NCBI GenBank assembly: GCA_009694865.1
Contig: SICD01000001.1
Location: forward strand, 403-64,402
DNA from: Candidatus Magasanikiibacteriota bacterium
GTDB taxonomy: Bacteria > Patescibacteriota > Patescibacteriia > Magasanikbacterales > GWA2-37-8
Direction: 5' to 3'
DNA: 64,000 nt
This document shows, piece after piece, positions 5,883 through 63,056 of the stretch (positions within the stretch are counted from its first letter, which is position 1; each line of letters starts with the position of its first letter). Position numbers and translations under genes: made by a program. Below the pieces are notes generated by a model. That model saw only the letters and a list, made by a program, of their open reading frames with translations. It ran no database searches and was not told the DNA's origin.

Positions 5883-6044
5883 CTACGATTCTACGCCATC
5901 TTTAATTTTTTTAACAATCGTAACAAGACTCTCAAGTATTACTTTTATCTCTCGCAGATCATCCTTAGTCGCCATAGTTTCCTTAACTATACGCATATCT
6001 TCTTTCAACCCAATTATTTCTTGTATAACTTTATCTTCATCCAT
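5883..6044 (-). CDS. Small hypothetical coiled-coil protein (53 aa)
   Basis: Internal ATG of ORF 5883..6074: MDEDKVIQEIIGLKEDMRIVKETMATKDDLREIKVILESLV... The composition matches the backbone. No homology was recognised. Confidence 0.25.
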   Translation of the reverse strand: MDEDKVIQEIIGLKEDMRIVKETMATKDDLREIKVILESLVTIVKKIKDGVES

Positions 6045-6150
6045 AGTATTGTAGTAACAAAAATTAAACCTCACCTAACGTCTTAGAACTGGTAGCGAGT
6101 TATTTCTATAAGTGGCTTAACGTAGCCAAAAATTGACAAAAATTTTTGGC

Positions 6151-6279
6151 TGTCATTCCGACGACACAGGAGGTCTCGCGATCCCTCATAGGGGAATCTC
6201 TGGCTCACTCAATTGATGACATTTGTTGTTGGGTAAGCCAGAGATCCCTCGTCGGCGCGAGCCTCGCTCGGGATGACAA
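6151..6279. repeat. MITE-like palindromic element family A, intergenic
   Basis: tgtcattccgacgacacaggaggtctcgcgatccc...gggatctc...cgctcgggatgacaa. The central part is a nested palindrome. Confidence 0.7.
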
Positions 6280-6395
6280 TTGGTGAAACTCGCTATGAAT
6301 TCTTATACCTTTTAGTATATATAACAAAAAAAGCCTTGTCAAACGCAAACACCGTTGTTGCTCGTTCCCCGTTTATATAATATAATTCCCCCACT

Positions 6396-7568
6396 ATGGA
6401 CAATTACTCTGCCTGGAACGTTCCCCAGCATTCTCCTGATATTTTTAAAACACTCCCCCCGCGAGAACAGCTAGAATATCTGTGCGCCTTGGCCCACCTC
6501 GCCCCCAGCACCCACAACACCCAGCCATGGCGATTTAAGATATCGGTGGAGACGCACATTATTGAACTCTATCTGGATCGCAACACCGTACTGCCGGCTT
6601 CGGACGTGGTGGGTCGACAATCGGTAGTGAGCTGTGGCACGGCGCTCGCTCACCTCAAACTCGCTTCGGAATATTATGGCTTTAAAGCAGAAGTGGCTAC
6701 CGCGTCAATTGATCCAGCGTCAGTGAAACCGCTTCCTGTTTCGAGCCTCCCCTCACCCAACCTCTCCCGTGAGGAGAGGAGGTCGTTCCCCTCGCCCCGC
6801 GGGAGAGGGACGCAGGGTGAGGGGTCGCCGCTCGCAATCATAGCGCTCACCCCAGCGACACCAAACCTAAATAAAGAAAAATTAATCACCAGTATCTGGA
6901 AACGAAAAATGATGCGCGCGGAATTTAAACCAGACCAACTCATCCCAACAGAAGTAATATCAGAATTAAAACAATGGACCGATAACGACGTAACAAAACT
7001 TCACATTATAACCGACCCGGTGCGACGCTTGAGCATCGCGGAATTCCAAGCCCAGGCCGATGGGTTTGTGATAAACTCAACAAAATTTAGCCGTGAGCTC
7101 GGCGATTGGCTCCTCCCCAACGATACAAATTCCCCGGTCGGCATGCCCGGCATTGGTTTTGGCCTGCAAGACGAAGAAGCTAAACGATTACACGCCGGAC
7201 TCTCTGGCGAAAAAGCTCTCGAAGCCGAAGACGGCCTGCGTTTTGCTTTGGGCGGAAAAATGGGGCTAGAAAAATCGCCGCTCATTGGCTTTATTACGAC
7301 CAAAGATGACACACCGGAAAGTTGGCTGGCGGCGGGCGAAGCGTTTGAAAAAATGAATTTAACGCTCGTTGCCGCCGGTTTAAGCGTTGCCATGCACGCC
7401 GGCATTACCGAAGTACCGCTCATTAAAAAAATTTTTAGCGTGTCGCTCGGCACGCTCCGGCCTATCACTGTGCTCTTTCGCGCCGGTTATTTAAAAAATG
7501 AGCACGATGCGAATCGCCCTCATTCTCCTCGTCTGCCACTCTCCGCTGTCATCCTGAAAGATAAGTGA
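6396..7568 (+). CDS. Nitroreductase-superfamily protein (long form, about 390 aa) carrying an in-frame palindromic insertion
   Basis: The nitroreductase signature APSTHNTQPWRF is near the N-terminus. The size fits a two-domain (Acg/SagB-like) nitroreductase. Family-B element 6747-6824 is translated in-frame as ...[31 protein letters not shown].... Confidence 0.65.
   Translation: MDNYSAWNVPQHSPDIFKTLPPREQLEYLCALAHLAPSTHNTQPWRFKISVETHIIELYLDRNTVLPASDVVGRQSVVSCGTALAHLKLASEYYGFKAEVATASIDPASVKPLPVSSLPSPNLSREERRSFPSPRGRGTQGEGSPLAIIALTPATPNLNKEKLITSIWKRKMMRAEFKPDQLIPTEVISELKQWTDNDVTKLHIITDPVRRLSIAEFQAQADGFVINSTKFSRELGDWLLPNDTNSPVGMPGIGFGLQDEEAKRLHAGLSGEKALEAEDGLRFALGGKMGLEKSPLIGFITTKDDTPESWLAAGEAFEKMNLTLVAAGLSVAMHAGITEVPLIKKIFSVSLGTLRPITVLFRAGYLKNEHDANRPHSPRLPLSAVILKDK
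6747..6824. repeat. Palindromic element family B (cccctcaccc...gggtgagggg with two internal hairpins), in-frame inside the nitroreductase gene
   Basis: cctcccctcacccaacctctcccgtgaggagaggaggtcgttcccctcgccccgcgggagagggacgcagggtgagggg. A second copy is at 61803-61877 inside uvrB. Confidence 0.65.
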
Positions 7569-7584
7569 AGGATCTAATTTAAAT

Positions 7585-7719
7585 TGTCATTCCGAATCCC
7601 CCGTCGCAGGGGGTGAGGAATCTCTGTCTCAATCAACGTAACGACAGACAGAGATCCCCCTACGAGGGATCGCGAGACCTCGTCGCACCGCACGATACGG
7701 GGCTCGCTCGGGATGACAG
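7585..7719. repeat. MITE-like palindromic element family A, filling exactly the gap between convergent genes (stop at 7568 and stop at 7720)
   Basis: tgtcattccgaatcccccgtcgcagggggtgagg...cgctcgggatgacag. Confidence 0.7.
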
Positions 7720-8970
7720 TTAAAAAATCTTCGCTGTCAAATTGTGTTTATTAATAATCGCCCTTGGCGGATAATCGTAACCAAGCCGAATTCGCGCCAC
7801 CGTTTCAGCCGCTACTGCACCCGCCATCGCCACGGTTGACCCCAGTTGCGGAATTAAAGTTGAAGTAGGAATTTCACTTTTTTCTTCAATAATATCTTTT
7901 AACTCGTCTTGACGATACGCGGTGCCAACGAGGCTATCCACAAACGCAAAAAATGCTTGCCTATTGCCAGGCCGATTATAAACTTCTTCCATTTTTTTAT
8001 ACAACTCACTATCGGTCGTTCCAAATGTGAGCGGAAGCGTTTGGTCTTGGTCAAATCGACACACATCCAGTTGCACAGCCGAGCCAATGTCCGTCACCAT
8101 CACCACCGGAAGTTTCCGTTTCCTTGCTTCCTCGCGAATGAATAATTTCACACGTGGATCATCCACTTCTTCCACAACAATATCGGTCGTTGGCTCGCCC
8201 TCTCTGCCATCAAAAAATTCTTTCACATTATCCAATGTCACGCCTTCGTCGTACACAAACACATTCATATACGGATCCATGGCATAAATTTGTTCCGCCA
8301 CGACCCGCGCTTTATTTTTTAACGCCAAATCTACTTCGCTTGCTCGCTCGGCCTGGCTTTTTACCATTTCAAAATATCCCAAACGCACGCGGTTAATATT
8401 TTCCATTTTATACAAACTCTTGTCGGCTACTTTAATATTACTCGGACGCATGTCCATAACCAGGCTATGGATGACGCTGCTCCCCACGCTGCACCCGGCC
8501 ACTGCCACAACAGTAGTAGATAATTTCTCTCGCACCTCTGCCCAGGATAATTTTTTATTTTTATCAGTCAGCAGGGTGGAACTACTGGTGACAGCCACGG
8601 TGTGATGCCAGTACGGCGGACAAAACCTCACTAGATGGTTCCGCTCGGCATAATAAGCATAATACCCATAAGCAAACGGCGCACCTGGCCCCAAAACGGA
8701 TAATTGATTGCTGTAATTTTCCCATTCACCATTAAACTCTTCACGCAAACTTTTCCCAGAAGCGCCCCGCGCCGAAAGCGTCAATCTCTCATTCAAACCA
8801 AAAATTGTGGCTTGGGTTAAATCGTATTGATGCGACGGTGGGACGCCTCGCTCCTCGCCATCAATCGTAATTTTTGTTGTTCCGTCATTTTCGTAACGCA
8901 CCAAACCTAAACTGTGAGCCACACCAGCTTCATAGATAAACGGTTTACCAATTAGTCGAGAAACGGACAT
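7720..8970 (-). CDS. ThiF/MoeB/E1-like adenylyltransferase-family protein with a roughly 150-aa N-terminal extension
   Basis: Rossmann GxGxxG loop VAVAGCSVGSSVIHSLV followed by a ThiF-like core. Its start is 3 nt after the stop of the upstream 371-aa gene. Confidence 0.6.
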   Translation of the reverse strand: MSVSRLIGKPFIYEAGVAHSLGLVRYENDGTTKITIDGEERGVPPSHQYDLTQATIFGLNERLTLSARGASGKSLREEFNGEWENYSNQLSVLGPGAPFAYGYYAYYAERNHLVRFCPPYWHHTVAVTSSSTLLTDKNKKLSWAEVREKLSTTVVAVAGCSVGSSVIHSLVMDMRPSNIKVADKSLYKMENINRVRLGYFEMVKSQAERASEVDLALKNKARVVAEQIYAMDPYMNVFVYDEGVTLDNVKEFFDGREGEPTTDIVVEEVDDPRVKLFIREEARKRKLPVVMVTDIGSAVQLDVCRFDQDQTLPLTFGTTDSELYKKMEEVYNRPGNRQAFFAFVDSLVGTAYRQDELKDIIEEKSEIPTSTLIPQLGSTVAMAGAVAAETVARIRLGYDYPPRAIINKHNLTAKIF

Positions 8971-16991: not shown

Positions 16992-17080
16992 CTGTCATTC
17001 TGAGCGGAGCGAAGAATCCCTTAAAGCCAACATCTAAGTTAATGCAAACATCAAGGGATCCTTCATTTCACTCAGGACAA
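16992..17080. repeat. Degenerate copy of MITE family A, immediately upstream of high-GC cassette A
   Basis: ctgtcattctgagcggagcgaagaatccc...gggatccttcatttcactcaggacaa. Confidence 0.5.
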
Positions 17081-27218: not shown

Positions 27219-28865
27219 TTATATCAAAGGCGTCCCCGTCATCTCTTTGGGCTGTGTAAGCCCCATAAGTTTTAAAACCGTCGGCGCGACATCCGCTAAA
27301 AATCCCACCGGCGGAAGCAAACTCAGATCCCCTTCCGGCGCGTCGCCACCTGGGCCGGCCTGACCGCGAAAATCAGCGCCGATGACGAGCAGGGGAACGG
27401 GATTGGTAGAGTGCTCTTTATCCATTTCACCAGTTTGCAAATTAATCACTTCTTCGGCATTGCCATGATCCGCTGTCATAATAACCACACCGCCAACCGC
27501 CAGTGTATGGCCTACAATATCGCCCAAACATTTATCAATGGTCTCACACGCGGCAATGGTGGCTTTGCGATCGCCGGTGTGGCCAACCATATCGGCATTG
27601 GCATAATTAATAACCACCAAATCAAACTTGCCGCTATCGATGGCTTTAATAGTTTTTTTTGTTACTTCGGACGCTGACATAGCTGGTACTTCGGCGTAAC
27701 TGGCCACATGCGGCGACGACACCAAAGCGCGCTCCTCGCCCGGAAAAGCTTCTTCAATTGTGCCATTCAAAAAAAATGTTACATGCGCGTATTTTTCCGT
27801 TTCCGCCGCGTGAAATTGCTTAAGACCGGCCAAACTAACGGCTTCAGCCAAACAATTACGCGCCACAATGGGCGCATAGGCCACTACCACCGGCAAATCT
27901 TTTTCATACTCCATCATGGTGACAAAAAATAACTTTTTTATGTCGCTGCGTTTAAATTTATCAAACCCGGGGAGTACAAAGGCTTTAGTGAGTTCGCGCG
28001 CGCGGTCGGGACGAAAATTAGCAAAAATAATAGCATCCCCATCAGTCACAGTCGCCACTGGCTTACCTGCCTCGCTCGCCTCGCTGGAGCTATGGCGAAG
28101 CGGGCCGGAGCCTTTGGCGGAGGCTGAATCACCATCCATAATCACGGTCGGCACAAATTCTTCATCATAATTTTTTTTCGCGTAGCTGGCTTTAATCGCC
28201 TCGGCGGGGCTAGTCGCGCTGCGTTCCGCTTTGCCTTCCGCCATTGCTTTGTAAGCCGCTTCAACTCGTTCCCAGCGGTTATCCCTATCCATGGCATAAA
28301 ACCGCCCCGAGAGCGAGGCGATCGCTCCAACTTTCAACTTTTTCAGCTTCGCTTCCAATTCTTTTACAAAACTTTCCCCGGCGCTATAAATACAGTCACG
28401 CCCATCTAAGATAACGTGGACAAAAACCTCTTTGCCTAAACCTTGCTTTTTACACAAATCCAAAAGTGCATAAAGGTGTTCATTGCTAGCGTGCACATTA
28501 CCGGAACTTAACATGGCAATAATATGGAGTTTGCTTTTATTCTTTTCCACGTGGGCAATCGCATCTAGAAAAGCCTTGTTCTTAAAAAATTCACCGCTCG
28601 ATATTTCTTGGTTAATGCGAGGACAGGATTGATAATAAACTCTACCCGCGCCAATATTAAGGTGCCCCACTTCCGAATTACCAATTTCACCAAATAAAAG
28701 ACCCACTTCGTTCCCCGAAGCGTGCAAGGTCATCGCCGGATACTCTTTAATATACGATTTAAAATTGGGCAACTTAGCCTGGGCAATAGCATTGCCATCG
28801 CTATCTGGCGCTACACCCCAACCGTCGCAGATGACAAGGGTAACTGGTTTGTAAGATTTACTCAT
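27219..28865 (-). CDS. gpmI: 2,3-bisphosphoglycerate-independent phosphoglycerate mutase (copy 1, 548 aa)
   Basis: iPGM motifs GNSEVGHLNIGAGRV and TADHGNAEE, with a metalloenzyme core. Confidence 0.85.
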   Translation of the reverse strand: MSKSYKPVTLVICDGWGVAPDSDGNAIAQAKLPNFKSYIKEYPAMTLHASGNEVGLLFGEIGNSEVGHLNIGAGRVYYQSCPRINQEISSGEFFKNKAFLDAIAHVEKNKSKLHIIAMLSSGNVHASNEHLYALLDLCKKQGLGKEVFVHVILDGRDCIYSAGESFVKELEAKLKKLKVGAIASLSGRFYAMDRDNRWERVEAAYKAMAEGKAERSATSPAEAIKASYAKKNYDEEFVPTVIMDGDSASAKGSGPLRHSSSEASEAGKPVATVTDGDAIIFANFRPDRARELTKAFVLPGFDKFKRSDIKKLFFVTMMEYEKDLPVVVAYAPIVARNCLAEAVSLAGLKQFHAAETEKYAHVTFFLNGTIEEAFPGEERALVSSPHVASYAEVPAMSASEVTKKTIKAIDSGKFDLVVINYANADMVGHTGDRKATIAACETIDKCLGDIVGHTLAVGGVVIMTADHGNAEEVINLQTGEMDKEHSTNPVPLLVIGADFRGQAGPGGDAPEGDLSLLPPVGFLADVAPTVLKLMGLTQPKEMTGTPLI

Positions 28866-28883
28866 AAAAAATCAAGATACGAT

Positions 28884-29067
28884 TGTCATTTCGAAGCCCC
28901 CTTCGCAGGGGGTGAGAAATCTCTGGCTCAATCACTTGTCATCCCGAGCGTAGTCGAGGGATCTCGCGTCGTTGGCGAGATTCCTCCACTTCGCTGCGCT
29001 CCGGTCGGAATGACAAACGACGGACAGAGATCCCTCGTCGGCCGCGAGGCCTCGCTCGGGATGACAG
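28884..29067. repeat. Composite or nested MITE family A element (about 185 bp) between the two gpmI paralogs
   Basis: tgtcatttcgaagcccccttcgcagggggtgag...cttgtcatcccgagcg...ggtcggaatgacaaacgacggacagagatccctcgtcgg...cgctcgggatgacag. It looks like two elements, one inside the other. Confidence 0.65.
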
Positions 29068-29070
29068 CAC

Positions 29071-30657
29071 TTACAGCAAGCTTCGTCCTGTCATTTCCTT
29101 CGGTTTCTTAATTCCCATTATTTTTAAAATCGTGGGAGACACGTCCGCCAGTTTGCCTTTTTTAAGGTTTCGAGATTTTAGCTTAAATTGTTTATGTACG
29201 GACGCAGGCGCTATAAACACAAATGGCACGGGATTTACCGAATGCTCCGTATCAACTTCGTCGGTCTTGAGGTTTACCATTTCTTCGGCATTACCATGAT
29301 CGGCGGTTATAACACATTGCCCTCCAGCCTTGAGGACACTCTGTGCCACGCGGTTAAGCTGTTTGTCAAGAATCGCAATCGCCTTTTCGGCGGCCGCAAT
29401 ATTCCCCGTGTGCCCCACCATGTCGGCATTGGCAAAATTAACCGCGATAAAATCATATTCCCGCGCTTCAATTGCTTTCACGGCGTAGGTGGCGATTTTA
29501 TCCGCTTCCATCGCCGGGTCAGTTTCAAAATCTTTCACGCGATCCGAAGCAATTTTTACCCACCGCTCATCGCCAAAATGCTGTTGGTAGCCGCCATTAA
29601 AAAAATAAGTGACGTGCGCGAACTTTTCTGATTCAGCGAGATATAATTGCCGGCGCGGACACAAAGTCTGTACCAAAGTATTAGGAATGTCACGACTCGG
29701 AAACGCTGTGAGTACACGCGGAAAATCCGGACCAAAATCCGCCATCGCCACAAACCGAGTATTTTTCGGCACAATTTTTCGATCAAACGTTCCGCCATTT
29801 TCCTTCTCAAACTGCGGATGCACAAACGCCTTCGTAATCTGCCGCGCCCGGTCACTGCGCAAATTAAAAAAGAAAATCGCGTCGTTACTTTTTATCGTCG
29901 CCACTGGTTTATTATTTTCAACAATCACCATGGGCGTAATAAACTCATCACTTTCACCAGAATTATACGCTTGCGTTAGTGCCTCTTCCGCGCTATTTGC
30001 CTGCTTACCTTTGCCTTCAACCATCGCCCGGTACGCCTTTTGTGTCCGGTGCCAAATTTTATTACGATCCATCCCGTATAACCGCCCCATCACCGTCGCA
30101 ATTTTCTCCGTGCCGTGAAAATGATTTTGTAAATGTTTAAGATGATGCGGCGCGTCGTGTTGACCAGAATCCCGCCCATCGGTAAATAAATGCAAATACA
30201 CTTTTTTAATTCCCTCCTGATGAATTAAACCCAAAAGCGCGAACAGGTGCTCCGGACAGGAATGCGCGCTGTTGTGATTCGAGAGCAATCCCATCAAATG
30301 CACCGCCGTTTTGTATTTTTTTACATGGTGCAGTGCTTCGTGAAACGCATTATTCTTAAAAAACGTACCGTCATTAATCGCATCGGTAATATACAGCGTA
30401 TCTTGTTTTACAACTCGCCCCGCCCCAATATTCAAATGCCCGGCTTCACTATTCCCCTCCTGCCCGCGCGGCAATCCGACGGCGACACCGCTCGCCTCAA
30501 GAAGAGTGTGGGGATATTTTTTCCACCAACCAAAAAAATTCGGCGCCGTTTTGGGCGTAATAGCGTTGCCCTTTTGTTTTGGGTCAGCCATGCCAAAGCC
30601 GTCGAGGATAATGAGGATGGTGATTGGTGATTTTGTAGGCATAATATTTCGTAACAA
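29071..30657 (-). CDS. gpmI: 2,3-bisphosphoglycerate-independent phosphoglycerate mutase (copy 2, a divergent paralog of 528 aa)
   Basis: GNSEAGHLNIGAGRV, ITADHGNAEE. Collinear with copy 1 but clearly diverged. Confidence 0.8.
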   Translation of the reverse strand: MLRNIMPTKSPITILIILDGFGMADPKQKGNAITPKTAPNFFGWWKKYPHTLLEASGVAVGLPRGQEGNSEAGHLNIGAGRVVKQDTLYITDAINDGTFFKNNAFHEALHHVKKYKTAVHLMGLLSNHNSAHSCPEHLFALLGLIHQEGIKKVYLHLFTDGRDSGQHDAPHHLKHLQNHFHGTEKIATVMGRLYGMDRNKIWHRTQKAYRAMVEGKGKQANSAEEALTQAYNSGESDEFITPMVIVENNKPVATIKSNDAIFFFNLRSDRARQITKAFVHPQFEKENGGTFDRKIVPKNTRFVAMADFGPDFPRVLTAFPSRDIPNTLVQTLCPRRQLYLAESEKFAHVTYFFNGGYQQHFGDERWVKIASDRVKDFETDPAMEADKIATYAVKAIEAREYDFIAVNFANADMVGHTGNIAAAEKAIAILDKQLNRVAQSVLKAGGQCVITADHGNAEEMVNLKTDEVDTEHSVNPVPFVFIAPASVHKQFKLKSRNLKKGKLADVSPTILKIMGIKKPKEMTGRSLL

Positions 30658-31055: not shown

Positions 31056-31145
31056 ATATTTTATTGATAATTTCTTAGGCACAAAATTTTGGCACCCTTG
31101 AATAAATAAAAATAGTTTAATAATTGAACAATCGAACCGTTGAAC

Positions 31146-31202
31146 CGGACAGAGATTCCCCTAAGAGGGATCGCGAGACCTCCTTCTTCGTCGGAATGAC
31201 AG
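31146..31202. repeat. Half copy of MITE family A (3' arm ...cttcgtcggaatgacag), followed by a ccccctcgaggggg hairpin at 31238-31252
   Basis: cggacagagattcccctaagagggatcgcgagacctccttcttcgtcggaatgacag. Confidence 0.5.
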
Positions 31203-31295
31203 TTGGGCGGCGGCGCATGGGCCTTACACCCCCACCGTCCCCCTCGAGGGGGAATTCACGAATTTCGTACTTTCGTAGTTTTCATATTTTGTACA

Positions 31296-44690: not shown

Positions 44691-44800
44691 AATTTCAAAT
44701 ATCAAAATCCAAATGTCAAACCAAGTTCAAAATCCAAAAACCAATTTTTGACATTATGGCTTTGGATTTGATTTGGCATTTGACATTTGTCGTTTGGATT
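44691..44800. repeat. Leader repeat family C (aaatccaaatgtcaaa / tttgacatttg motifs) between rpsB and tsf. A related copy lies upstream of rplY at 52700-52830.
   Basis: caaaatccaaatgtcaaaccaagttcaaaatccaaaaacc...ggatttgatttggcatttgacatttgtcgtttggattttt. It contains TTGACA motifs in the sense orientation of tsf. Confidence 0.55.
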
Positions 44801-44801
44801 T

Positions 44802-45668
44802 TTAAACAACCTCTTGCGTTTTAATCACCCGGCGTTCTTTTTTAGAAGCGTACGGAGTAACTGACTCGGCCGGAATAGCGCTGGCCACAATTTTAGGCAT
44901 CGCGGCCGCTACTTTAACTTCCCCGCCCGAGGCGGGTCCGCCTTGGGAGGATTGCTCTTTAAGCAAAGCTTTAGTTTTTTCATAATCTGCCTTGCCTTCT
45001 TTCACCGCTTCAGCCATTAAATTCACTATCATCTTAATGGAATTCACCGCGTCATCATTCGCGGGAATGGCATAATTAACTTTGGTAGGGTCAACATTGG
45101 TGTCGCAAACTGCCACCATGGGAATATTCAAACGCACCGCTTCAGCCACCGCGGTTTTTTCTACCCGCAAATCAGCAATATACAAAGCGTCCGGTAATTT
45201 TTCCAGAGTTACCAAACCAGCCAAATACTTTTCCATTTTCTCAACTTGTTTTTGAAACACTACCTGTTCTTTTTTCGTGTACTTTTCAATTTCACCAGTC
45301 GCGAACATTTCTTTAATACCTTTATACTTCTTCATGCGACGTTTAAACTCATCAAAATTGGTTATGAGTCCGCCAATCCAGCGTTCGGTTAAGTACGGCA
45401 TACCACAATCGAGCGCGGCCACTTTAACCAATTCGCGCGCCTGGCGCTTGGTGCCAACAAATAAAATAACCTTGCCTTTAGCGGCGAGGTCGTGCACGTA
45501 CTGGAGCGCGCTTGCGAGTTGCTCCAAAGTTTTGTCTAAATCAATCACGTGCACGCCATTACGCAGACCAAAAATATAGGGCTGCATTTTAGGGTGCCAG
45601 CGTGACCGTTGGTGGCCAAAATGGACGCCTGCTTTAAGCATTTCCATGAGGCTTGGTAGCTGTGTCAT
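44802..45668 (-). CDS. rpsB: 30S ribosomal protein S2
   Basis: MLKAGVHFGHQRSRWHPKM and ...ITNF.... There is a C-terminal extension. Confidence 0.9.
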   Translation of the reverse strand: MTQLPSLMEMLKAGVHFGHQRSRWHPKMQPYIFGLRNGVHVIDLDKTLEQLASALQYVHDLAAKGKVILFVGTKRQARELVKVAALDCGMPYLTERWIGGLITNFDEFKRRMKKYKGIKEMFATGEIEKYTKKEQVVFQKQVEKMEKYLAGLVTLEKLPDALYIADLRVEKTAVAEAVRLNIPMVAVCDTNVDPTKVNYAIPANDDAVNSIKMIVNLMAEAVKEGKADYEKTKALLKEQSSQGGPASGGEVKVAAAMPKIVASAIPAESVTPYASKKERRVIKTQEVV

Positions 45669-46164: not shown

Positions 46165-46222
46165 CTAAAATTTTCAAAACAGACTATACTATTGTTAGTC
46201 TGTTTTTGTTTAGTATTTCACT

Positions 46223-46336
46223 TGTCATCCCGAGCGAGGCTCGCGCCGACGAGGTCTCGCGATCCCTCGTAGGGGAATCTCTGTCCGTCGGTTGTTGATT
46301 GAGCCAGAGATTCCTCCTTCGTCGTCGGAATGACAA
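46223..46336. repeat. MITE family A copy abutting the prfA start codon
   Basis: cttgtcatcccgagcgaggctcgcgccgacgaggtctcgcgatccc...cttcgtcgtcggaatgacaa. The prfA ATG is 4 nt after the element. Confidence 0.7.
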
Positions 46337-46339
46337 TTG

Positions 46340-47958: not shown

Positions 47959-49083
47959 ATGCCAACTATCAAAATTTTACAAAAACGATACCATAGCCAA
48001 ATAAACGAGCTTGACTTTAGCATTCTTCTCGCTCACGCTATTAACAAACCGCGAGAATTCCTCTACGCTCACCCCAACTTTCCGCTTTCCGCTTTCGCCT
48101 ACGCGCGCCTAAGGTATTTTTTGTTTCACTACAAACGCGGCTATTCCGTTGCCGCCATTACCCACCATAAAGAATTTTACGGGTTAAATTTTTATGTGAA
48201 CAAAGACACCCTCATCCCCCGCCCCGAAACTGAACTGCTGGTTGAAGAAGCCATTGCGGCAATTAAAACCCCCCCCTCGCGGGGGGGCTCGGGGGGGTGT
48301 TGGCTCATCGACGTTGGCACTGGGAGCGGGTGTATTCCAATCACGATCGCCACACACCTCAATTGTCATCCTGAGCGCAGCGAAGGATCTCTGTCTCAAT
48401 CGGGAGCGGACAGAGATTCTTCGATCGCTAAGCTCCCTCAGAATGACAGTTTAAAAATATTTGCGACGGACATTTCTAAATCAGCGCTTCGCGTCGCCCG
48501 TAAAAACGCTCGAATACAAAATGTATCCATAAACTTTTTACACGGTAACCTCCTCGAACCGTTCGTAAAACAGATCAACACCGCAACACATCAACACCGC
48601 AACACTTTAACAATTGAACAATTGAACAATCAAACTATTATAATAACAGCAAATCTTCCGTATCTTACTCCGATTCAATTCGAAGCCGAACCAAGTATCC
48701 AACGCGAACCTCGCTCCGCCTTGGTTGCGGAAAATAGCGGCCTCGCATTGTACGAAAAATTGTTACAACAAATTTCTCATCTTTCTCCGTCTGTCATTTC
48801 GACGACACGTTCGCTACGCTCAGTGCAGGCTCCGGAGGAATCTCTGGCTCAATCGGCAAAACGGACAGAGATTCCCCTACGAGGGATCGCGAGACCTCGT
48901 CGGCCGCGAGACCTCACTCGGAATGACAAACTAAAAATGATCATTTTTTTCGAAATCGATCCTTCCCAAACACAAAAAATATCCTCTCTCGTAAAAACCT
49001 ATCTTCCTTTGGCCTCTATCGAAATAAAAACCGACCTCGCGGGGCGAGATCGGGTGGTGAAAATTAACCTTACGTTACCTTAG
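47959..49083 (+). CDS. prmC: Release-factor glutamine N5-methyltransferase (PrmC/HemK) carrying three in-frame repeat insertions
   Basis: NLPY variant of NPPY (ITANLPYLTP) and a SAM-binding motif IDVGTGSGCI. The product is about 90 aa longer than typical PrmC. The extra segments coincide with hairpin 48271-48287, MITE 48364-48449 and MITE 48792-48929. Confidence 0.75.
   Translation: MPTIKILQKRYHSQINELDFSILLAHAINKPREFLYAHPNFPLSAFAYARLRYFLFHYKRGYSVAAITHHKEFYGLNFYVNKDTLIPRPETELLVEEAIAAIKTPPSRGGSGGCWLIDVGTGSGCIPITIATHLNCHPERSEGSLSQSGADRDSSIAKLPQNDSLKIFATDISKSALRVARKNARIQNVSINFLHGNLLEPFVKQINTATHQHRNTLTIEQLNNQTIIITANLPYLTPIQFEAEPSIQREPRSALVAENSGLALYEKLLQQISHLSPSVISTTRSLRSVQAPEESLAQSAKRTEIPLRGIARPRRPRDLTRNDKLKMIIFFEIDPSQTQKISSLVKTYLPLASIEIKTDLAGRDRVVKINLTLP
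48364..48449. repeat. MITE subfamily A2 copy in-frame within prmC
   Basis: attgtcatcctgagcgcagcgaaggatctctgtctcaatcgggagcggacagagattcttcgatcgctaagctccctcagaatgacag. Confidence 0.65.
48792..48929. repeat. MITE family A copy in-frame within prmC
   Basis: ctgtcatttcgacgacacgttcgctacgctcagtgcaggctccggaggaatctctggctcaatcgg...gggatcgcgagacctcgtcggccgcgagacctcactcggaatgacaa. Confidence 0.65.
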
Positions 49084-52699: not shown

Positions 52700-52830
52700 A
52701 TATTTATTCAAATTTCAAATTACAAATGTCAAATCAAATCCAAAATCCAAATTTTAAAACCATCACATTTGAGCTTTGAGCTTGATTTGACATTTGGATT
52801 TTGTCATTTGGCATTTGCTGCGTTAGTAAT
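52700..52830. repeat. Leader repeat family C copy upstream of rplY
   Basis: caaatttcaaattacaaatgtcaaatcaaatccaaaatccaaa...ttgatttgacatttggattttgtcatttggcatttg. Same motifs as 44691-44800. Confidence 0.55.
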
Positions 52831-57260: not shown

Positions 57261-60092
57261 CTATTTAAGCACACGTTTAAGGTATTGCCCGGTGAAAGAA
57301 GCGGATTTCTTAGCAACTTCTTCCGGTGTCCCGCTGGCAACAACCTCACCCCCCTTATCCCCCCCCTCCGGCCCCAAATCAATAATCCAATCCGCGCATT
57401 TAATCACATCCAAATTATGTTCAATCACCATCACGGTATTCCCTTGTCCAACAAGTCGTTGGAGCACATCAAGCAACTTCCGCACATCATCATAATGCAA
57501 ACCCGTCGTCGGCTCATCCAGCAAATACAACGTCTTAGTCGTGCCGTGTTTTGCCAACTCCCGGCTAAGTTTAATCCGCTGTGCTTCCCCGCCCGACAGC
57601 GTCGTTGCCGATTGTCCCAAGGTTAAATAATCCAACCCCACCTCATTTAACATTTTCAATTTATCTTCCACCAGCGGAATATCTTTAAAAAACTCTTCCG
57701 CGTCTTCAATTGTCATGTTCAAAACATCCGAAATATTCTTGTCTTTATAATGCACCTGTAAAATTTCGTTGGTAAACCGTTTGCCGCGGCACACATCACA
57801 AATAATTTGCACGCTCGGCAAGAAATGCATCTCAATTTCTAAATTTCCTCGGCCTTCACAGTTTTCACAACGCCCACCTGGGACGTTAAAGCTAAATTTA
57901 CCAGATTTGTACCCCCGAATTTTTGCCTCTGGAGTTGACGCGAATAATTCCCGAATAAAATCGAAGGCTTTCGTATACGTCGCCGGGTTACTACGCGGCG
58001 TGCGCCCAATCGCGCTCTGGTCAATCGTAATCATCCGATCAATATATTCGGTCCCGGTGATTTCCAAATGCTTGCCGACCGATTTATTAAGACGAAATAA
58101 ACGATTGTTAATCGAGCGATGCAAAATATCGTGCATTAAAGTAGATTTTCCCGATCCGGAAACACCGGTAAGGCATACAAACCGTCGCAGAGGAATCTCC
58201 ACGGTAATATTTTTCAAATTATGTTCCGTCGCTTTCTTAATTTTAATTTTCGGCGTCGCCCCATCTACTTTCCGTCGCTTTTCGGGTACAGGAACTTTTA
58301 ATTCGCCGCGGAGGTATTGGCCGGTGAGAGATTTTGCTGGGTCGCCTTGGGTAGCGGCAAATACGGACTGCCCCCTCGAGGGGGCCTCACGGGGGTGTAA
58401 GACCGCTGCGTGGCCGTTTCGACTTCGCTCAAGGCCACCCTGAGCAAGGTCGAATTGGTGGCGGTCGTCGATTGAGCGACGCAAAGGACTCACACCCCCC
58501 CGAACGCCCTGCGGGGCGCCCCCCTCGAGGGGGGATTTGGCGAGCATCACCTCTAACGGCCCCGAAAACACCACTTCCCCACCATGCTTCCCCGCCCCCG
58601 GTCCAATGTCCACAATCCAATCACTCACCATAATCGTATCCTCATCATGCTCCACAACAATAATGGTATTCCCCACATCACACAAATTCCGGAGCGTCCT
58701 CACTAGTCGGTCGTTATCCCGTTGATGCAACCCAATCGTTGGTTCATCCAGTACATACAAAGCACCAACCAGTCGCGTGCCCACTTGTGATGCTAACCGA
58801 ATACGCTGTGCCTCACCTCCCGACAGAGTGCCCGCTTTCCGATTAAGTGTTAGATAATGCAAACCAACATCAAACATGAACTGCAAACGATTGCAGACTT
58901 CCTTCAATACCGCCCCGGCAATTTCGCGTTGCGTTTCCGGCAATTCCATATCCACGCTCGCAAAAAATTCCCGCGCTTCGGCAATCGATAAATTTGTTAC
59001 TTCCCAAATATTTTTATCCACCACTTTCACGCTCAAGGCCGTGGCGTTTAACCGCTTGCCTTTACACACCGGACACTCTTCTTCACTGAATAATTCTTTA
59101 GTGCCCAAACCAGTACACGCTTGGCAATAACCATAAGGACTGTTAAAACTAAACAACCGCGGTTCAATTTCCGGAAAACTAAAACCATCTTTAGGGCAAG
59201 AATATTCGGTGCTATAAATATGTTCCTCGCCGCTGGGGTACAAGACCGTACAAAGGCCGTTGGAAAGTTCCACCGCATTGGCTACTGCTTCGCCCAAACG
59301 CTGTTCAACGTCTTTCTTTGTCATCCCGACAGAGGCTCGCGCCGACGAGGTCGAAGATCCTCCGAGGAGGAGATCTCTGTCTATCGTTTGGTGAGCCAGA
59401 GATTTCTCCTTCGCCGTCGAAATGACAGACAACGCTGCCATTGGAATTTTATCAACAATTACTTCAATAGTATGTTTATCATTTTTTTCTAAAATAACCC
59501 GTTCACGCAAACTTTTTATATTGCCATCCACTCGCACCTCTAAATATCCGGAATTATAAACATCATACAACATCTGATAATATTCGCCTTTGCGTCCGCG
59601 TACTACCGGAGAAAATAAAATTAATTCAGGAGCCTTTTTTGTTTTCCCACCATCTTGTTTTAGTGCTTTTTTAATTTTTTCTATCATCTGATCGGTCGTC
59701 ATTTTCTGAATTTTCGTGCCACAAAGCGGACAATGCGGCTCGCCTACTCGGGCAAATAAAACACGGAGATAATCATAAATCTCCGTGATCGTCGCCACGG
59801 TGGAACGCGGATTCGCACTGTGCGCTTTTTGATCGATCGAAATTGCCGGCGACAACCCTTCAATTTCATCCACATCCGGCTTTTGCATGCCACCCAAAAA
59901 CTGCCGCGCGTAAGCCGACAAACTTTCAATATACCGCCGCTGACCTTCCGCAAAAATCGTATCAAAAGCCAAGCTCGATTTTCCCGAACCTGATAATCCT
60001 GTAAACACAATCATTTTATTCCGCGGCAGTTCCAAATTAATATTCTTGAGATTGTGTTCTCGCGCCCCTTTGATTATAATTTTGTCTTGCAT
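57261..60092 (-). CDS. uvrA: Excinuclease ABC subunit A, with in-frame repeat insertions
   Basis: The start [20 protein letters not shown] is the canonical UvrA N-terminus (ATG at 60090-60092). It has two ABC ATPase modules and zinc-finger Cys clusters. MITE 59318-59428 and the two ccccctcgaggggg hairpin regions at 58371-58384 and 58519-58534 are translated in-frame. Confidence 0.9.
59318..59428. repeat. MITE family A copy in-frame within uvrA
   Basis: ttgtcatcccgacagaggctcgcgccgacgaggtcgaagatcctccgaggaggagatctctgtctatcgtttggtgagccagagatttctccttcgccgtcgaaatgacag. Confidence 0.65.
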
Positions 60093-60570: not shown

Positions 60571-62931
60571 CTACCCATTGCCCCCGACCACTCGGTCGGG
60601 TTTTTTATTAGAGAGCGCTTTGATTTTCGGCGTTCCCGAAACTTTCACCCTCGTCCGCAATTCCCGCAACTCATCCCTGAGTATCGCCGCCAACTCAAAC
60701 TCTAACCCCTTCGCCGCCTCCCGCATCTGTTTCTCTTTATCTTTAATAATTTCCTCCATCGGCCGCGCATCGCCGAGCAAATCCAAATCAAGAGTTGAAA
60801 TCGCTCCGGTGCGGCCTTTTAGCCCTCTCCCGGCTCTCGCGCCTTTTGAGCCTTTAGCATTTCCCCCATCTCGACTAACACCAAACTCTTCGAGAATATT
60901 CCTAATTGTTTTTTCAATCGTCTTCGGCGTAATGCCATGTTCTTTATTATACGCCAACTGAATTGTGCGACGACGGTCTGTTTCTTTAATCGCTCGTTCC
61001 ATGGAACCCGTCATATTATCCGCATACAACACTACTTGCCCATTCACATTCCGCGCCGCCCGGCCAATCGTCTGAATGAGTGACGTTTCACTGCGCAAAA
61101 ATCCTTCTTTATCCGCGTCTAAAATTGCCACCAGTGATACCTCGGGCATGTCAAGCCCTTCGCGCAACAAGTTAACCCCCACCAACACATCATGTTTACC
61201 CAGCCGCAAATCCATAATAATCTCAATCCGTTCCAACGTGAGCACATCACTATGAATATACGCCACTTTAATTTTTTTCTCTTTTAAATACTCCGTTAAA
61301 TCCTCCGCCATTTTTTTCGTGAGGGTGGTCACGAGCACTCGCTCACCCTGCTTAATCCGTTCGTCGATGCGGATAAGGAGGTCCTCGACTTGCGACTTTC
61401 CTAAATTGTCATTCTGAGCCCCGTCAGGGGTGGCCGAAGAATCTTCCTTTTTTCTATTCGGAAGATCCTTCGCTCCGCTCAGGATGACATTTTTATTTTT
61501 ACCGGTGATGGGCCTCACCACCACCTCTGGATCAATCAACCCCGTCGGCCGCACCACCTGCTCCACAACTTGCTCACTTTCCTTAATTTCATAGGGTGTT
61601 GGCGTAGCAGACACGTACACAAGCTGTCCCACACGCTCTTCAAATTCCTTATACTGAAGCGGCCGATTATCACGCGCACTGGGAAGACGAAAACCATGCT
61701 CAACCAGAGTATCTTTGCGTGCCCGGTCGCCATTATACATCCCTCTGATTTGAGGAACGGTAACGTGGGACTCGTCGATGATGGTGAGGAACCCCCGAGA
61801 CATCCCCTCACCCGACCTCTCCCGCGGGGAGAGGAGGCGCTTCCCCTCGCCCCGCGGGAGAGGGACGGAGGGTGAGGGTTCGGTCGCACTATACCTAAAA
61901 TAATCCAACAACGTAAACGGCGGCTCCCCTTCCGCGCGCCCTTCAAAATGCCGCGAATAATTTTCAATGCCGTTGCAATACCCAATATTTTTTATCATCT
62001 CCAAATCATACGCCACTCGCCGCTTTAACCGTTCATATTCCAAAACTTTCCCCTGCCGTTCAAACACCGCGAGTTGTTCGTCGAGCTCGCTTTTGATTCT
62101 CGCAAACGCCTGTTGACGAGAGGCCTCACTCACCACATAATGCTTCGCCGGAAAAAACCAAACATCAGACTCGCGCCTGATGTTTGTCCTGAGGCCGCGC
62201 ACGGCCGAAGGACCCCTCTCATCAACATCCGAACTAGCAAGAACCGCCCGAGTAACACGATCTAATTTTTCAATTCGGTCGATATGGCTCGAGATCTCGA
62301 ATCGATAAATCGCATCCTCATTCACCGGCATTATTTCAAACACCTGCCCGTGCAACCGAAAACTGCCCCGCTTTAGTTCGCTGTTCGTCCGCTCAAATTG
62401 CATCGCGACCAATTGTTCCAACATCGCCCGCCGATCAAGTTCATCCCCCCGTCGCAAATGCAAAACAATTTTTTCATATTCTTTAGGAGACCCCAAACCG
62501 TAAATCGCCGAAACCGATGCCACAATAATAACATCCCGCCGCGTCAACAACGCCTGCGTACACGCATGCCGCAACCGATCAATCTCCTCGTTCACCTGCG
62601 CCTCTTTTTCAATATAAGTATCACTCCCCGGCATATACGCCTCGGGCTGGTAGTAATCATAATAACTAACAAAATATTCTACCGCGTTATCAGGAAAAAA
62701 TTCCCGAAATTCATTACACAACTGCGCCGCCAAAGTTTTGTTATGCGCAATAACAAGCGTTGGCATTTGCACCTGTTGAATCACATTCGCCATCGTAAAG
62801 GTCTTTCCCGAACCGGTTACGCCAAGCAATGTCTGCTTCCGCATTCCCTGCTCCAAACCCAAAACAAGCCTTTCAATGGCTTTGGGCTGGTCTCCATCTG
62901 GCTGGTATTTTGATTTTATTTTGAATTGCAT
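60571..62931 (-). CDS. uvrB: Excinuclease ABC subunit B, with in-frame repeat insertions
   Basis: The start [22 protein letters not shown] is the UvrB N-terminus (ATG at 62929-62931). Helicase motifs GVTGSGKT and the C-terminal UVR domain are present. MITE 61406-61490 and the family-B element 61803-61877 are read through in-frame (...[26 protein letters not shown]...). Confidence 0.9.
61406..61490. repeat. MITE subfamily A2 copy in-frame within uvrB
   Basis: ttgtcattctgagccccgtcaggggtggccgaagaatcttccttttttctattcggaagatccttcgctccgctcaggatgacat. Confidence 0.65.
61803..61877. repeat. Palindromic element family B copy in-frame within uvrB
   Basis: tcccctcacccgacctctcccgcggggagaggaggcgcttcccctcgccccgcgggagagggacggagggtgaggg. 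Nearly identical to 6747-6824. Confidence 0.65.
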
Positions 62932-62972
62932 GCTGTATGTGTCATTGCGAGGAGGAAAAAATCTACCGCCGA

Positions 62973-63056
62973 CTGTCATCCTGAGTCGGAGCGAAGGATC
63001 TAGTTCGATCAAAATGGCTTACCGACTAGATTCTTCATTTCATTCAGAATGACAGC
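62973..63056. repeat. MITE subfamily A2 copy (intergenic, between uvrB and xerC/D). A partial A3 terminus (tgtgtcattgcgagg) lies at about 62937-62951.
   Basis: ctgtcatcctgagtcggagcgaaggatctagttcgatcaaaatggcttaccgactagattcttcatttcattcagaatgacag. Confidence 0.65.

Follow-up and report, generated by a model that had tools for sequence, protein, structure and literature searches.

A stretch of 64,000 nucleotides from the genome of a Candidatus Magasanikiibacteriota bacterium (assembly GCA_009694865.1, contig SICD01000001.1; hereafter the window) carries two copies of a palindromic element, one in frame in a nitroreductase-family gene and the other in frame in uvrB. Judged by its sequence, each copy joins two units of a published repeat, inverted head to head, in a compact pair; this repeat is the G/C-rich intrastrand triplex motif known as BoxC, PIT or TMECO, and the element is not a member of the new family that an initial annotation of the stretch had proposed. 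We consider it probable that this BoxC/TM doublet was copied as a unit into permissive loops, where it is kept as a frame-neutral disordered loop with its sequence blocks under DNA-level constraint. The BoxC/TM kind of repeat is already known, as are in-frame palindromic inserts in the form of Rickettsia palindromic elements; new are BoxC/TM units in frame in genes, a host from the Candidate Phyla Radiation (CPR), the compact doublet with a 5-nt loop, and a constraint that is measurable against the synonymous sites of the host gene.

A repeat search of the window returned a pair of 80-nt segments, at 6748-6827 (copy 1) and 61803-61882 (copy 2), which are 90% identical without gaps and lie 55 kb apart, and the repeated palindromic element reported at these places is therefore real. 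The copies share an identical core of 26 nt, for which shuffled sequence would give 0 matches, and CCCCTCACCC has three matches in the window, every one at the two elements (0.13 expected). Both copies have outer inverted repeats of 9-10 nt; the ends given for them in the initial annotation, CCCCTCACCC...GGGTGAGGGG, are those of copy 1, whereas copy 2 has GGGTGAGGGT at its right end. Each copy contains six blocks of 7-9 nt (CCCTCACCC, CCTCTCCC, GGAGAGG, CCCTCGCCC, GGGAGAGGG and GGGTGAGGG) in two units, with a central spacer of 8-10 nt between the units and short loops elsewhere. The right unit, on the plus strand, has the canonical BoxC/TM architecture and matches a relaxed TMECO pattern; it reads CCCTCGCCC-CGC-GGGAGAGGG-ACGCA-GGGTGAGGG in copy 1 (6789-6823) and CCCTCGCCC-CGC-GGGAGAGGG-ACGGA-GGGTGAGGG in copy 2 (61844-61878), so that the C-stem pairs with the G-stem with one G/A mismatch and is followed by a third G block. 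The left unit, on the minus strand, is a degenerate TM unit with stems of 7-8 nt, which on the plus strand reads CCCTCACCC-AA-CCTCTCCC-GTGA-GGAGAGG in copy 1 (6750-6779) and CCCTCACCC-GA-CCTCTCCC-GCGG-GGAGAGG in copy 2 (61805-61834).

Both copies are oriented alike on the plus strand and their host genes lie on opposite strands, so that the nitroreductase and UvrB translate opposite strands of the element. The stop-free peptides quoted earlier for the two unrelated genes, of 27 residues for copy 1 and 26 residues for copy 2 (coding strand minus), are both present in the respective open reading frames (ORFs). Four of the six frames are open in each copy, because on each strand the single TGA of GGGTGAGGG shuts one frame. 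The G-rich arm GGGAGAGGG-ACGxA-GGGTGAGGG (6801-6823 and 61856-61878) has four G3 tracts with loops of 3, 5 and 3 nt, and this arm (GGGAGAGGGACGGAGGGTGAGGG) has the form of a canonical G-quadruplex motif, a predicted rival of the hairpin or triplex.

The basic unit of the family can be described as a C-rich 9-mer, a short loop, a complementary G-rich 9-mer, a second short loop and a mirror-symmetric G-rich 9-mer, GGGTGAGGG. The published TMECO pattern, CCCTCNCCC N3-6 GGGNGAGGG N3 GGGNGAGGG, has 23 copies in Escherichia coli K-12, which are always intergenic, with five as inverted pairs; they have no link to transposons, phages or plasmids, they are associated with local genomic instability, and the isolated strand forms a triplex in vitro, with none detected in vivo (Holder et al. 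2015, PMC4666352; earlier literature, taken here as cited with that paper: Bergler 1992, Bachellier, Hoyne/Maher 2000). The strict pattern has no match in the window, and with the second loop relaxed to 1-8 nt it matches only the two right halves (at 6789 and 61844), which fit CCCTCNCCC-N3-GGGNGAGGG-N5-GGGNGAGGG. The right halves also fall within the general ITxF definition (three blocks, stems of 6-15 nt with at most one mismatch, loops of 1-6 nt, G/C-rich class II; PMC4666352), as their blocks measure 9 nt and have a single G/A mismatch, their loops measure 3 and 5 nt, and GGGTGAGGG mirrors GGGAGAGGG, while the left halves fall within it in degenerate form only, with 7-8-nt stems and a 2-nt loop. 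The blocks CCCTCGCCC, GGGAGAGGG and GGGTGAGGG are the types A mm and B mm blocks of E. coli and agree with the E. coli copies that we inspected (L217 4206-4240 and L091 595-645), which are the published numbers 9 and 23; this link was made through Table 1 of PMC4666352, which lists coordinates and sequences, and the E. coli K-12 annotation has no repeat feature at the motif sites. The motif is found at a median of 17 places in each E. coli genome, and Enterobacter carries the unit too.

The window element thus has the same three-block layout and the same 9-mers as BoxC/PIT/TMECO (CCCTCNCCC, GGGAGAGGG and GGGTGAGGG), with the 'mm' variant CCCTCGCCC opposite GGGAGAGGG in both, and both have loops that vary more than the stems, occur as inverted pairs and have no known associated transposase. 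The head-to-head orientation of the window element is also that of the E. coli pair 17+18, in which the spacer is 59 nt long versus 8-10 nt in the window. The window element differs in its second loop (5 nt, versus 3 nt in E. coli) and in its degenerate left unit, and its units lie so much closer together than the 16-59 nt seen in the E. coli pairs that they form a near-continuous palindrome of 30 bp. It also differs in its location, as the window copies lie inside coding sequence and in frame whereas the E. coli copies are always intergenic, and in its host, a Patescibacteria (CPR) genome of approximately 47% G+C.

The first host gene (6396-7568, plus strand) encodes a protein of 390 aa, recorded as 'hypothetical protein EXS55_00040' of Candidatus Magasanikbacteria bacterium, which Pfam and homologues place in the nitroreductase family, the Pfam Nitroreductase match covering just an N-terminal stretch of the product. 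The second (60571-62931, minus strand) is uvrB, annotated as such in the Candidatus Magasanikbacteria metagenome-assembled genome (MAG), with a full-length product of 786 aa from the ATG at 62931 and an E-value of 7e-230 against UvrB in the PDB, and both gene identities given in the initial annotation are therefore upheld. Each ORF runs its full length and has conserved motifs after the insert. The uvrB ORF as listed (60571-63012, minus strand) begins at a TTG at 63012 and crosses repeat-derived sequence (62932-63012) ahead of the annotated start, which is an example of repeats making false N-terminal extensions.

Compared with solved UvrB structures, the element is seen as a 33-residue gap between ...LLDYF and FLTIIDESH, right before helicase motif II. 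The sister genome GCA_023246665.1, with a UvrB that is 78% identical, has a native loop of 10 residues and no insert at this site, the net gain in the window being 25 codons, and a second Magasanikbacteria MAG (JACRFW01, locus L044) has an in-frame uvrB insert at the same site, a 3-nt indel apart. The nitroreductase insert of ~21 residues is present in 1/80 aligned homologues, i.e. in the window protein only, and is missing from the closest homologue (68% identity), which is again from GCA_023246665.1. With the copies 55 kb apart in unrelated genes, a sister genome without both, an orthologous third copy in another MAG and many related copies elsewhere, local duplication can be dismissed. In the AlphaFold2 model of UvrB the pLDDT (predicted local distance difference test) score is below 50 at residues 352-378 and averages 87-91 in the flanking 10-residue blocks; the nitroreductase model has a mean pLDDT of 92, and its sole weak stretch is at ~111-142. 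Both inserts are therefore predicted to be disordered loops between confident core elements. An exhaustive search of 1.84 billion protein representatives with the insert peptide gave no family and one spurious repeat protein.

Whichever strand or copy is folded, the minimum-free-energy structure is a single long hairpin with imperfections (-59.9 to -63.4 kcal/mol, z -5.6 to -7.1). The inner stems described in the initial annotation do exist, but the multi-stem fold with two inner hairpins that was built on them is a possible alternative that is less stable than the single long hairpin, as the inner halves of copy 2 reach -45.7 kcal/mol when paired across and -28.5 kcal/mol as two local hairpins. 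These computations considered Watson-Crick pairing only and 16 doublets were folded one by one; in several of the doublets from elsewhere the loops of the two halves are complementary too, which identifies these as true inverted duplications. The element had no match in Rfam at gathering thresholds, and the E-value mode gave only far-sub-threshold, microRNA-like hairpin matches.

For the analysis of constraint we compared three close copies (n=3), namely both window copies and the uvrB copy of L044. None of the 50 block positions is variable in this set, compared with 12 of the 30 loop and spacer positions (p=1.4e-6), and the contrast holds when the 20 positions fixed by the search are left out (p=1.2e-5). 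The uvrB genes of the window and L044 share 80% identity as proteins and 70% as DNA, but only 42% at third codon positions, whereas identity in the codons of the element reaches 92%, and 87% (52/60, p=0.003) once the searched 20-mer is set aside. The host codons around the in-gene copies are a built-in clock, by which the element changes at a far lower rate than the synonymous sites, and this turns the 'conservation' of the motif into a measurable constraint. Amino acid changes in the insert (K/N, L/F and S/F) are confined to the loops and the spacer, and the window uvrB copy is equidistant from its paralogue and its orthologue, which gives no hint of homogenisation within the genome. Instead of covarying, the blocks keep a frozen sequence, which argues for a sequence-specific constraint at the DNA level rather than for peptide function or mere hairpin stability. 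With no Rfam match near threshold and with invariant blocks, there is no indication of a structured functional RNA. The element does not drift in the way of ordinary coding sequence, and the data point to a DNA-level constraint that holds the six blocks while the loops and spacers change.

UvrB is a site of insertion in other lineages as well. Among 120 Patescibacteria homologues, 29 have an insert of at least 8 residues at the same loop, and 28 have one at a second loop. The DNA of three Patescibacteria uvrB genes (L215 10001-12262, L218 501-2912 and L219 501-2843) contains other G/C-rich palindromic doublets at exactly the same codon position, with folding energies of -53 to -119 kcal/mol and flanking host residues G[HQ].. 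and [ST][RH]GF, and the insert peptides at this shared loop are unrelated between lineages. The position may be an insertion hotspot, or an insertion of old date may have been overwritten there time and again. Within the window uvrB there is a second palindrome of a different family (TGTCATCCTGAGCGGAGCGAAGGATC ... GCTCAGAATGACA), in frame at 61402-61503 (minus strand, aa ~477-510), with a fold of -42.2 kcal/mol (z -6.7), a disordered loop in the AlphaFold2 model and related copies at 16993-17018 and 48364-48389; two palindromic repeats that are unrelated to each other thus reside in a single essential gene. A third insert in this UvrB varies between lineages (62179-62241, minus strand, aa 231-251, 20 residues quoted); its DNA is not significantly structured (z 0.07), and several other Patescibacteria UvrBs have 'GPS...LRTN'-like peptides at this loop.

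We also searched the GTDB representative genomes with the inner 20-mer, which gave 90 stretches from many phyla, most of them with GGGTGAGGG 2-8 nt downstream, a feature that was not imposed by the search. Doublets of the same architecture were found in Dehalococcoidia, Anaerolineae, a Rokuibacteriota MAG, cyanobacteria and metagenomes. The strict subfamily pattern had no matches in the JGI metagenomes, phages had no match to the motif, and plasmids had scattered copies on megaplasmids only. Of 188 clusters, 80 lie in a stop-to-stop ORF that reaches at least 60 codons to either side, compared with 71% of random positions in the same loci, and the motif family is thus depleted from ORFs. That all copies lie in ORFs is true of both window copies, but the wider family is mostly intergenic, and in E. 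coli entirely so. Many of the ORFs that span the motif elsewhere are probably spurious, as ten of them taken at random included two clear genes with domains on both sides (Fpg and HsdM), one ambiguous case and seven without a Pfam match. The eight longest spanning ORFs, a selected set, all have Pfam domains, which flank or enclose the element in seven (ValRS, an IleRS-like synthetase, NRPS-PKS (non-ribosomal peptide synthetase-polyketide synthase), ThuA-DUF7133, NuoG, HrpA and a DEAD/DUF3516 helicase), while the eighth is a HemN-like gene whose true start may lie downstream of the element. Genuine genes thus hold the element in frame in only a minority of the 188 clusters, roughly 10-15%, but such cases recur across phyla. 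Pfam-verified genes with in-frame BoxC/TM units or doublets, between or within domains, are those for ValRS (L123 3819-6854), the IleRS-like synthetase (L056 3062-6289), HrpA (L031 213-4382), NuoG (L203 1133-3502), Fpg (L036 3790-4737) and HsdM (L101 2429-4048). At another locus (L082, ~5970-6340) TM units follow each other in tandem every 42 nt within an ORF of 888 codons and are translated as ...PSPLAPLPRGEG... repeats.

Under the explanation that we favour, a doublet with its own asymmetries would have been copied into two unrelated genes of the Magasanikbacteria genome. Its survival in genes would depend on the addition of a whole number of codons, on the absence of stops in four of the six frames, and on landing in surface loops that tolerate extra length, which together would lead to read-through as a Pro/Gly/Arg/Glu/Ser-rich disordered loop, as in the Rickettsia palindromic elements. 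The insert would be translated with a near-neutral effect on the protein, and the doublet would spread as a unit. The copying agent may be a single-strand, hairpin-dependent process (template switching during replication, or repair) or an enzyme acting in trans. Several points weigh against this explanation. The strong conservation of the blocks sits ill with a purely passive passenger, the strict TMECO pattern is missed by the second loop of 5 nt instead of 3 nt, and the E. coli copies are described as 'always intergenic' (PMC4666352). The orthologues with empty sites have diverged, leaving exact insertion boundaries and target-site duplications unreadable, and it is the intact frames that suggest translation of the insert. 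The copies seen number two, within a 64-kb window, so that dispersal and mobility within this genome are putative, and a search with E. coli RayT of 9263 ORFs, taken from the window and from every locus retrieved, found no mobilising enzyme.

Other explanations have to be weighed against this one. A hairpin of ~30 bp in the mRNA could adjust the levels of UvrB and the nitroreductase by slowing ribosomes, by providing a site for RNase III or by making the transcript more stable; such a role would agree with the very stable folds on both strands (-60 to -63 kcal/mol, z about -6 to -7) and with conservation of the element beyond the synonymous sites of its host gene. We nevertheless regard it as quite unlikely, as the two genes read opposite strands and their mRNAs therefore differ in sequence, the stem blocks are invariant across copies without covariation, intergenic copies from E. 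coli to Chloroflexota conserve the same blocks, Rfam contains no matching family, and PIT/TM had no promoter, terminator or RNA-polymerase effect in earlier work, as far as this is cited in PMC4666352. That the Pro/Gly/Arg/Glu-rich peptide is itself an adaptive module, selected as an interaction or regulatory loop, would explain why the frame is preserved in two species, the 3-nt indel included, and why many Patescibacteria UvrBs have some insert at the same loop. This seems improbable when differences between the copies fall in loops and spacers, where they alter amino acids, and spare the nucleotide blocks, each gene translates a different strand of the element, the insert peptides at the UvrB site are unrelated between lineages, both inserts are disordered in the AlphaFold2 models, and no protein family turned up among the 1.84 billion representatives.

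There is also little to recommend a REPIN-type doublet moved by RAYT (REP-associated tyrosine transposase), or a MITE (miniature inverted-repeat transposable element) moved by the transposase of an insertion sequence (IS), even though doublets of short palindromes forming one long hairpin, next to abundant singlets elsewhere, are the REP/REPIN layout, and the loops of the two halves are mutually complementary in several doublets. The element lacks the GT[AG]G head, phages had no match, Holder et al. (PMC4666352) report no link to transposons, phages or plasmids, and, unlike REP families, which are normally specific to a lineage, these blocks do not change from phylum to phylum. No transposase was found in a search limited to RAYT, other IS not being sought; phmmer with E. 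coli RayT gave one match among the 9263 ORFs, flanked by classical GTAG-type REPs. This RAYT-like ORF (L106 8847-9327, E=1e-9 to E. coli RayT) is on a metagenome contig of 67% G+C with GTAG-type REPs on both sides and BoxC/TM units 2.5-6 kb away, so two repeat systems coexist there unlinked. An artefact of assembly or binning, or a pseudogene status of the host genes, deserves hardly any credence: the source is indeed a MAG, and G/C-rich palindromes can misassemble, but the uvrB insert recurs at the identical codon position in an independent MAG (L044), neither ORF is truncated and each has conserved motifs beyond the insert, and the cores of both proteins are modelled with confidence. Among further candidates that were rejected, the element is too short for an intein or intron and has no motifs of these, its arms are only 5-10 nt apart, against an intragenic inverton, and translational bypass is not supported in uvrB, which has no matched take-off and landing codons and a frame that is open anyway.

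A more far-reaching interpretation, which we would put forward as an unlikely extension, is that BoxC/TM is an actively propagating, pan-bacterial, sequence-specific element, whose doublet is what spreads and routinely colonises permissive loops of essential proteins (UvrB, aminoacyl-tRNA synthetases and helicases) in gene-dense CPR genomes, is replaced or renewed at fixed hotspots, and has its 9-mers frozen by a conserved enzyme or host factor. If this were true, the element would be a maker of protein-length variation and would put non-B DNA or a strong mRNA hairpin into genes. In a more remote variant ribosomes might bypass the hairpin, by analogy with the G/C-cluster 'byps' of yeast mitochondria, which are ribosome-bypassed hairpins, but nothing in the data calls for this.

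Rickettsia palindromic elements are ~100-150 bp in size and restricted to Rickettsia and relatives. To our knowledge they are unrelated in sequence to the G/C-rich 9-mer blocks, being set apart by size and composition as described. They are palindromic repeats found in frame in unrelated housekeeping genes, where they are read through as added peptide at sites regarded as compatible with the protein fold (PMC10969869). The window inserts resemble them in that they too are in frame in unrelated genes, at positions predicted to be compatible with the fold, and would add an extra peptide. With REP/REPIN systems the element shares short G/C-rich palindromic units that occur as singlets and as inverted doublets forming one long hairpin, while it differs in having no GTAG head and no RAYT adjoining the motif, and in blocks that are cross-phylum rather than species-specific. 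The ERIC/RU-type small mobile sequences of enterobacteria (Delihas 2007, PMC2759123) are likewise small and normally intergenic repeats that occasionally occur in ORFs and add peptide, but they belong to another sequence family and differ in size (103-168 bp) and in their terminal-inverted-repeat organisation. In-frame residence of BoxC/TM in genes was not described by Holder et al. (PMC4666352), and an incomplete collection of the literature contained no account of BoxC/TM inserts that are in frame, or of inserts of this sort in proteins of CPR bacteria. BoxC/TM has been known since the 1990s as an abundant and strikingly conserved repeat that was described as strictly intergenic, and the in-gene copies offer natural filled and empty sites for the study of its spread. 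Such inserts also inflate protein lengths and create spurious low-complexity segments of the 'PLPRGEG' type in MAG annotation.

The intergenic regions of the window are packed with other palindromic families (TTGTCATTCCGA..., GAGGTCTCGCGATCCCTC... and CAGAGATTCC...), often adjacent to each other as a mosaic, and regions with such repeats are found at 6150-6282, 7583-7725, 28882-29066, 31145-31205, 46216-46339, 48834-48945 and 59318-59431. The nitroreductase gene and its ThiF neighbour overlap in the sister genome and have ~150 nt of palindromic repeats between them in the window. Two A/T-rich, internally repetitive segments at 44691-44805 and 52706-52815 (TTTGACATTTG and CAAATGTCAAA units) are inverted relative to each other and complementary over 45-73 nt at 71-77%. 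Finally, 27219-28865 and 29071-30657 are adjacent tandem paralogues on the minus strand, with segments that are ~70-72% identical at a constant offset of 1831 nt.

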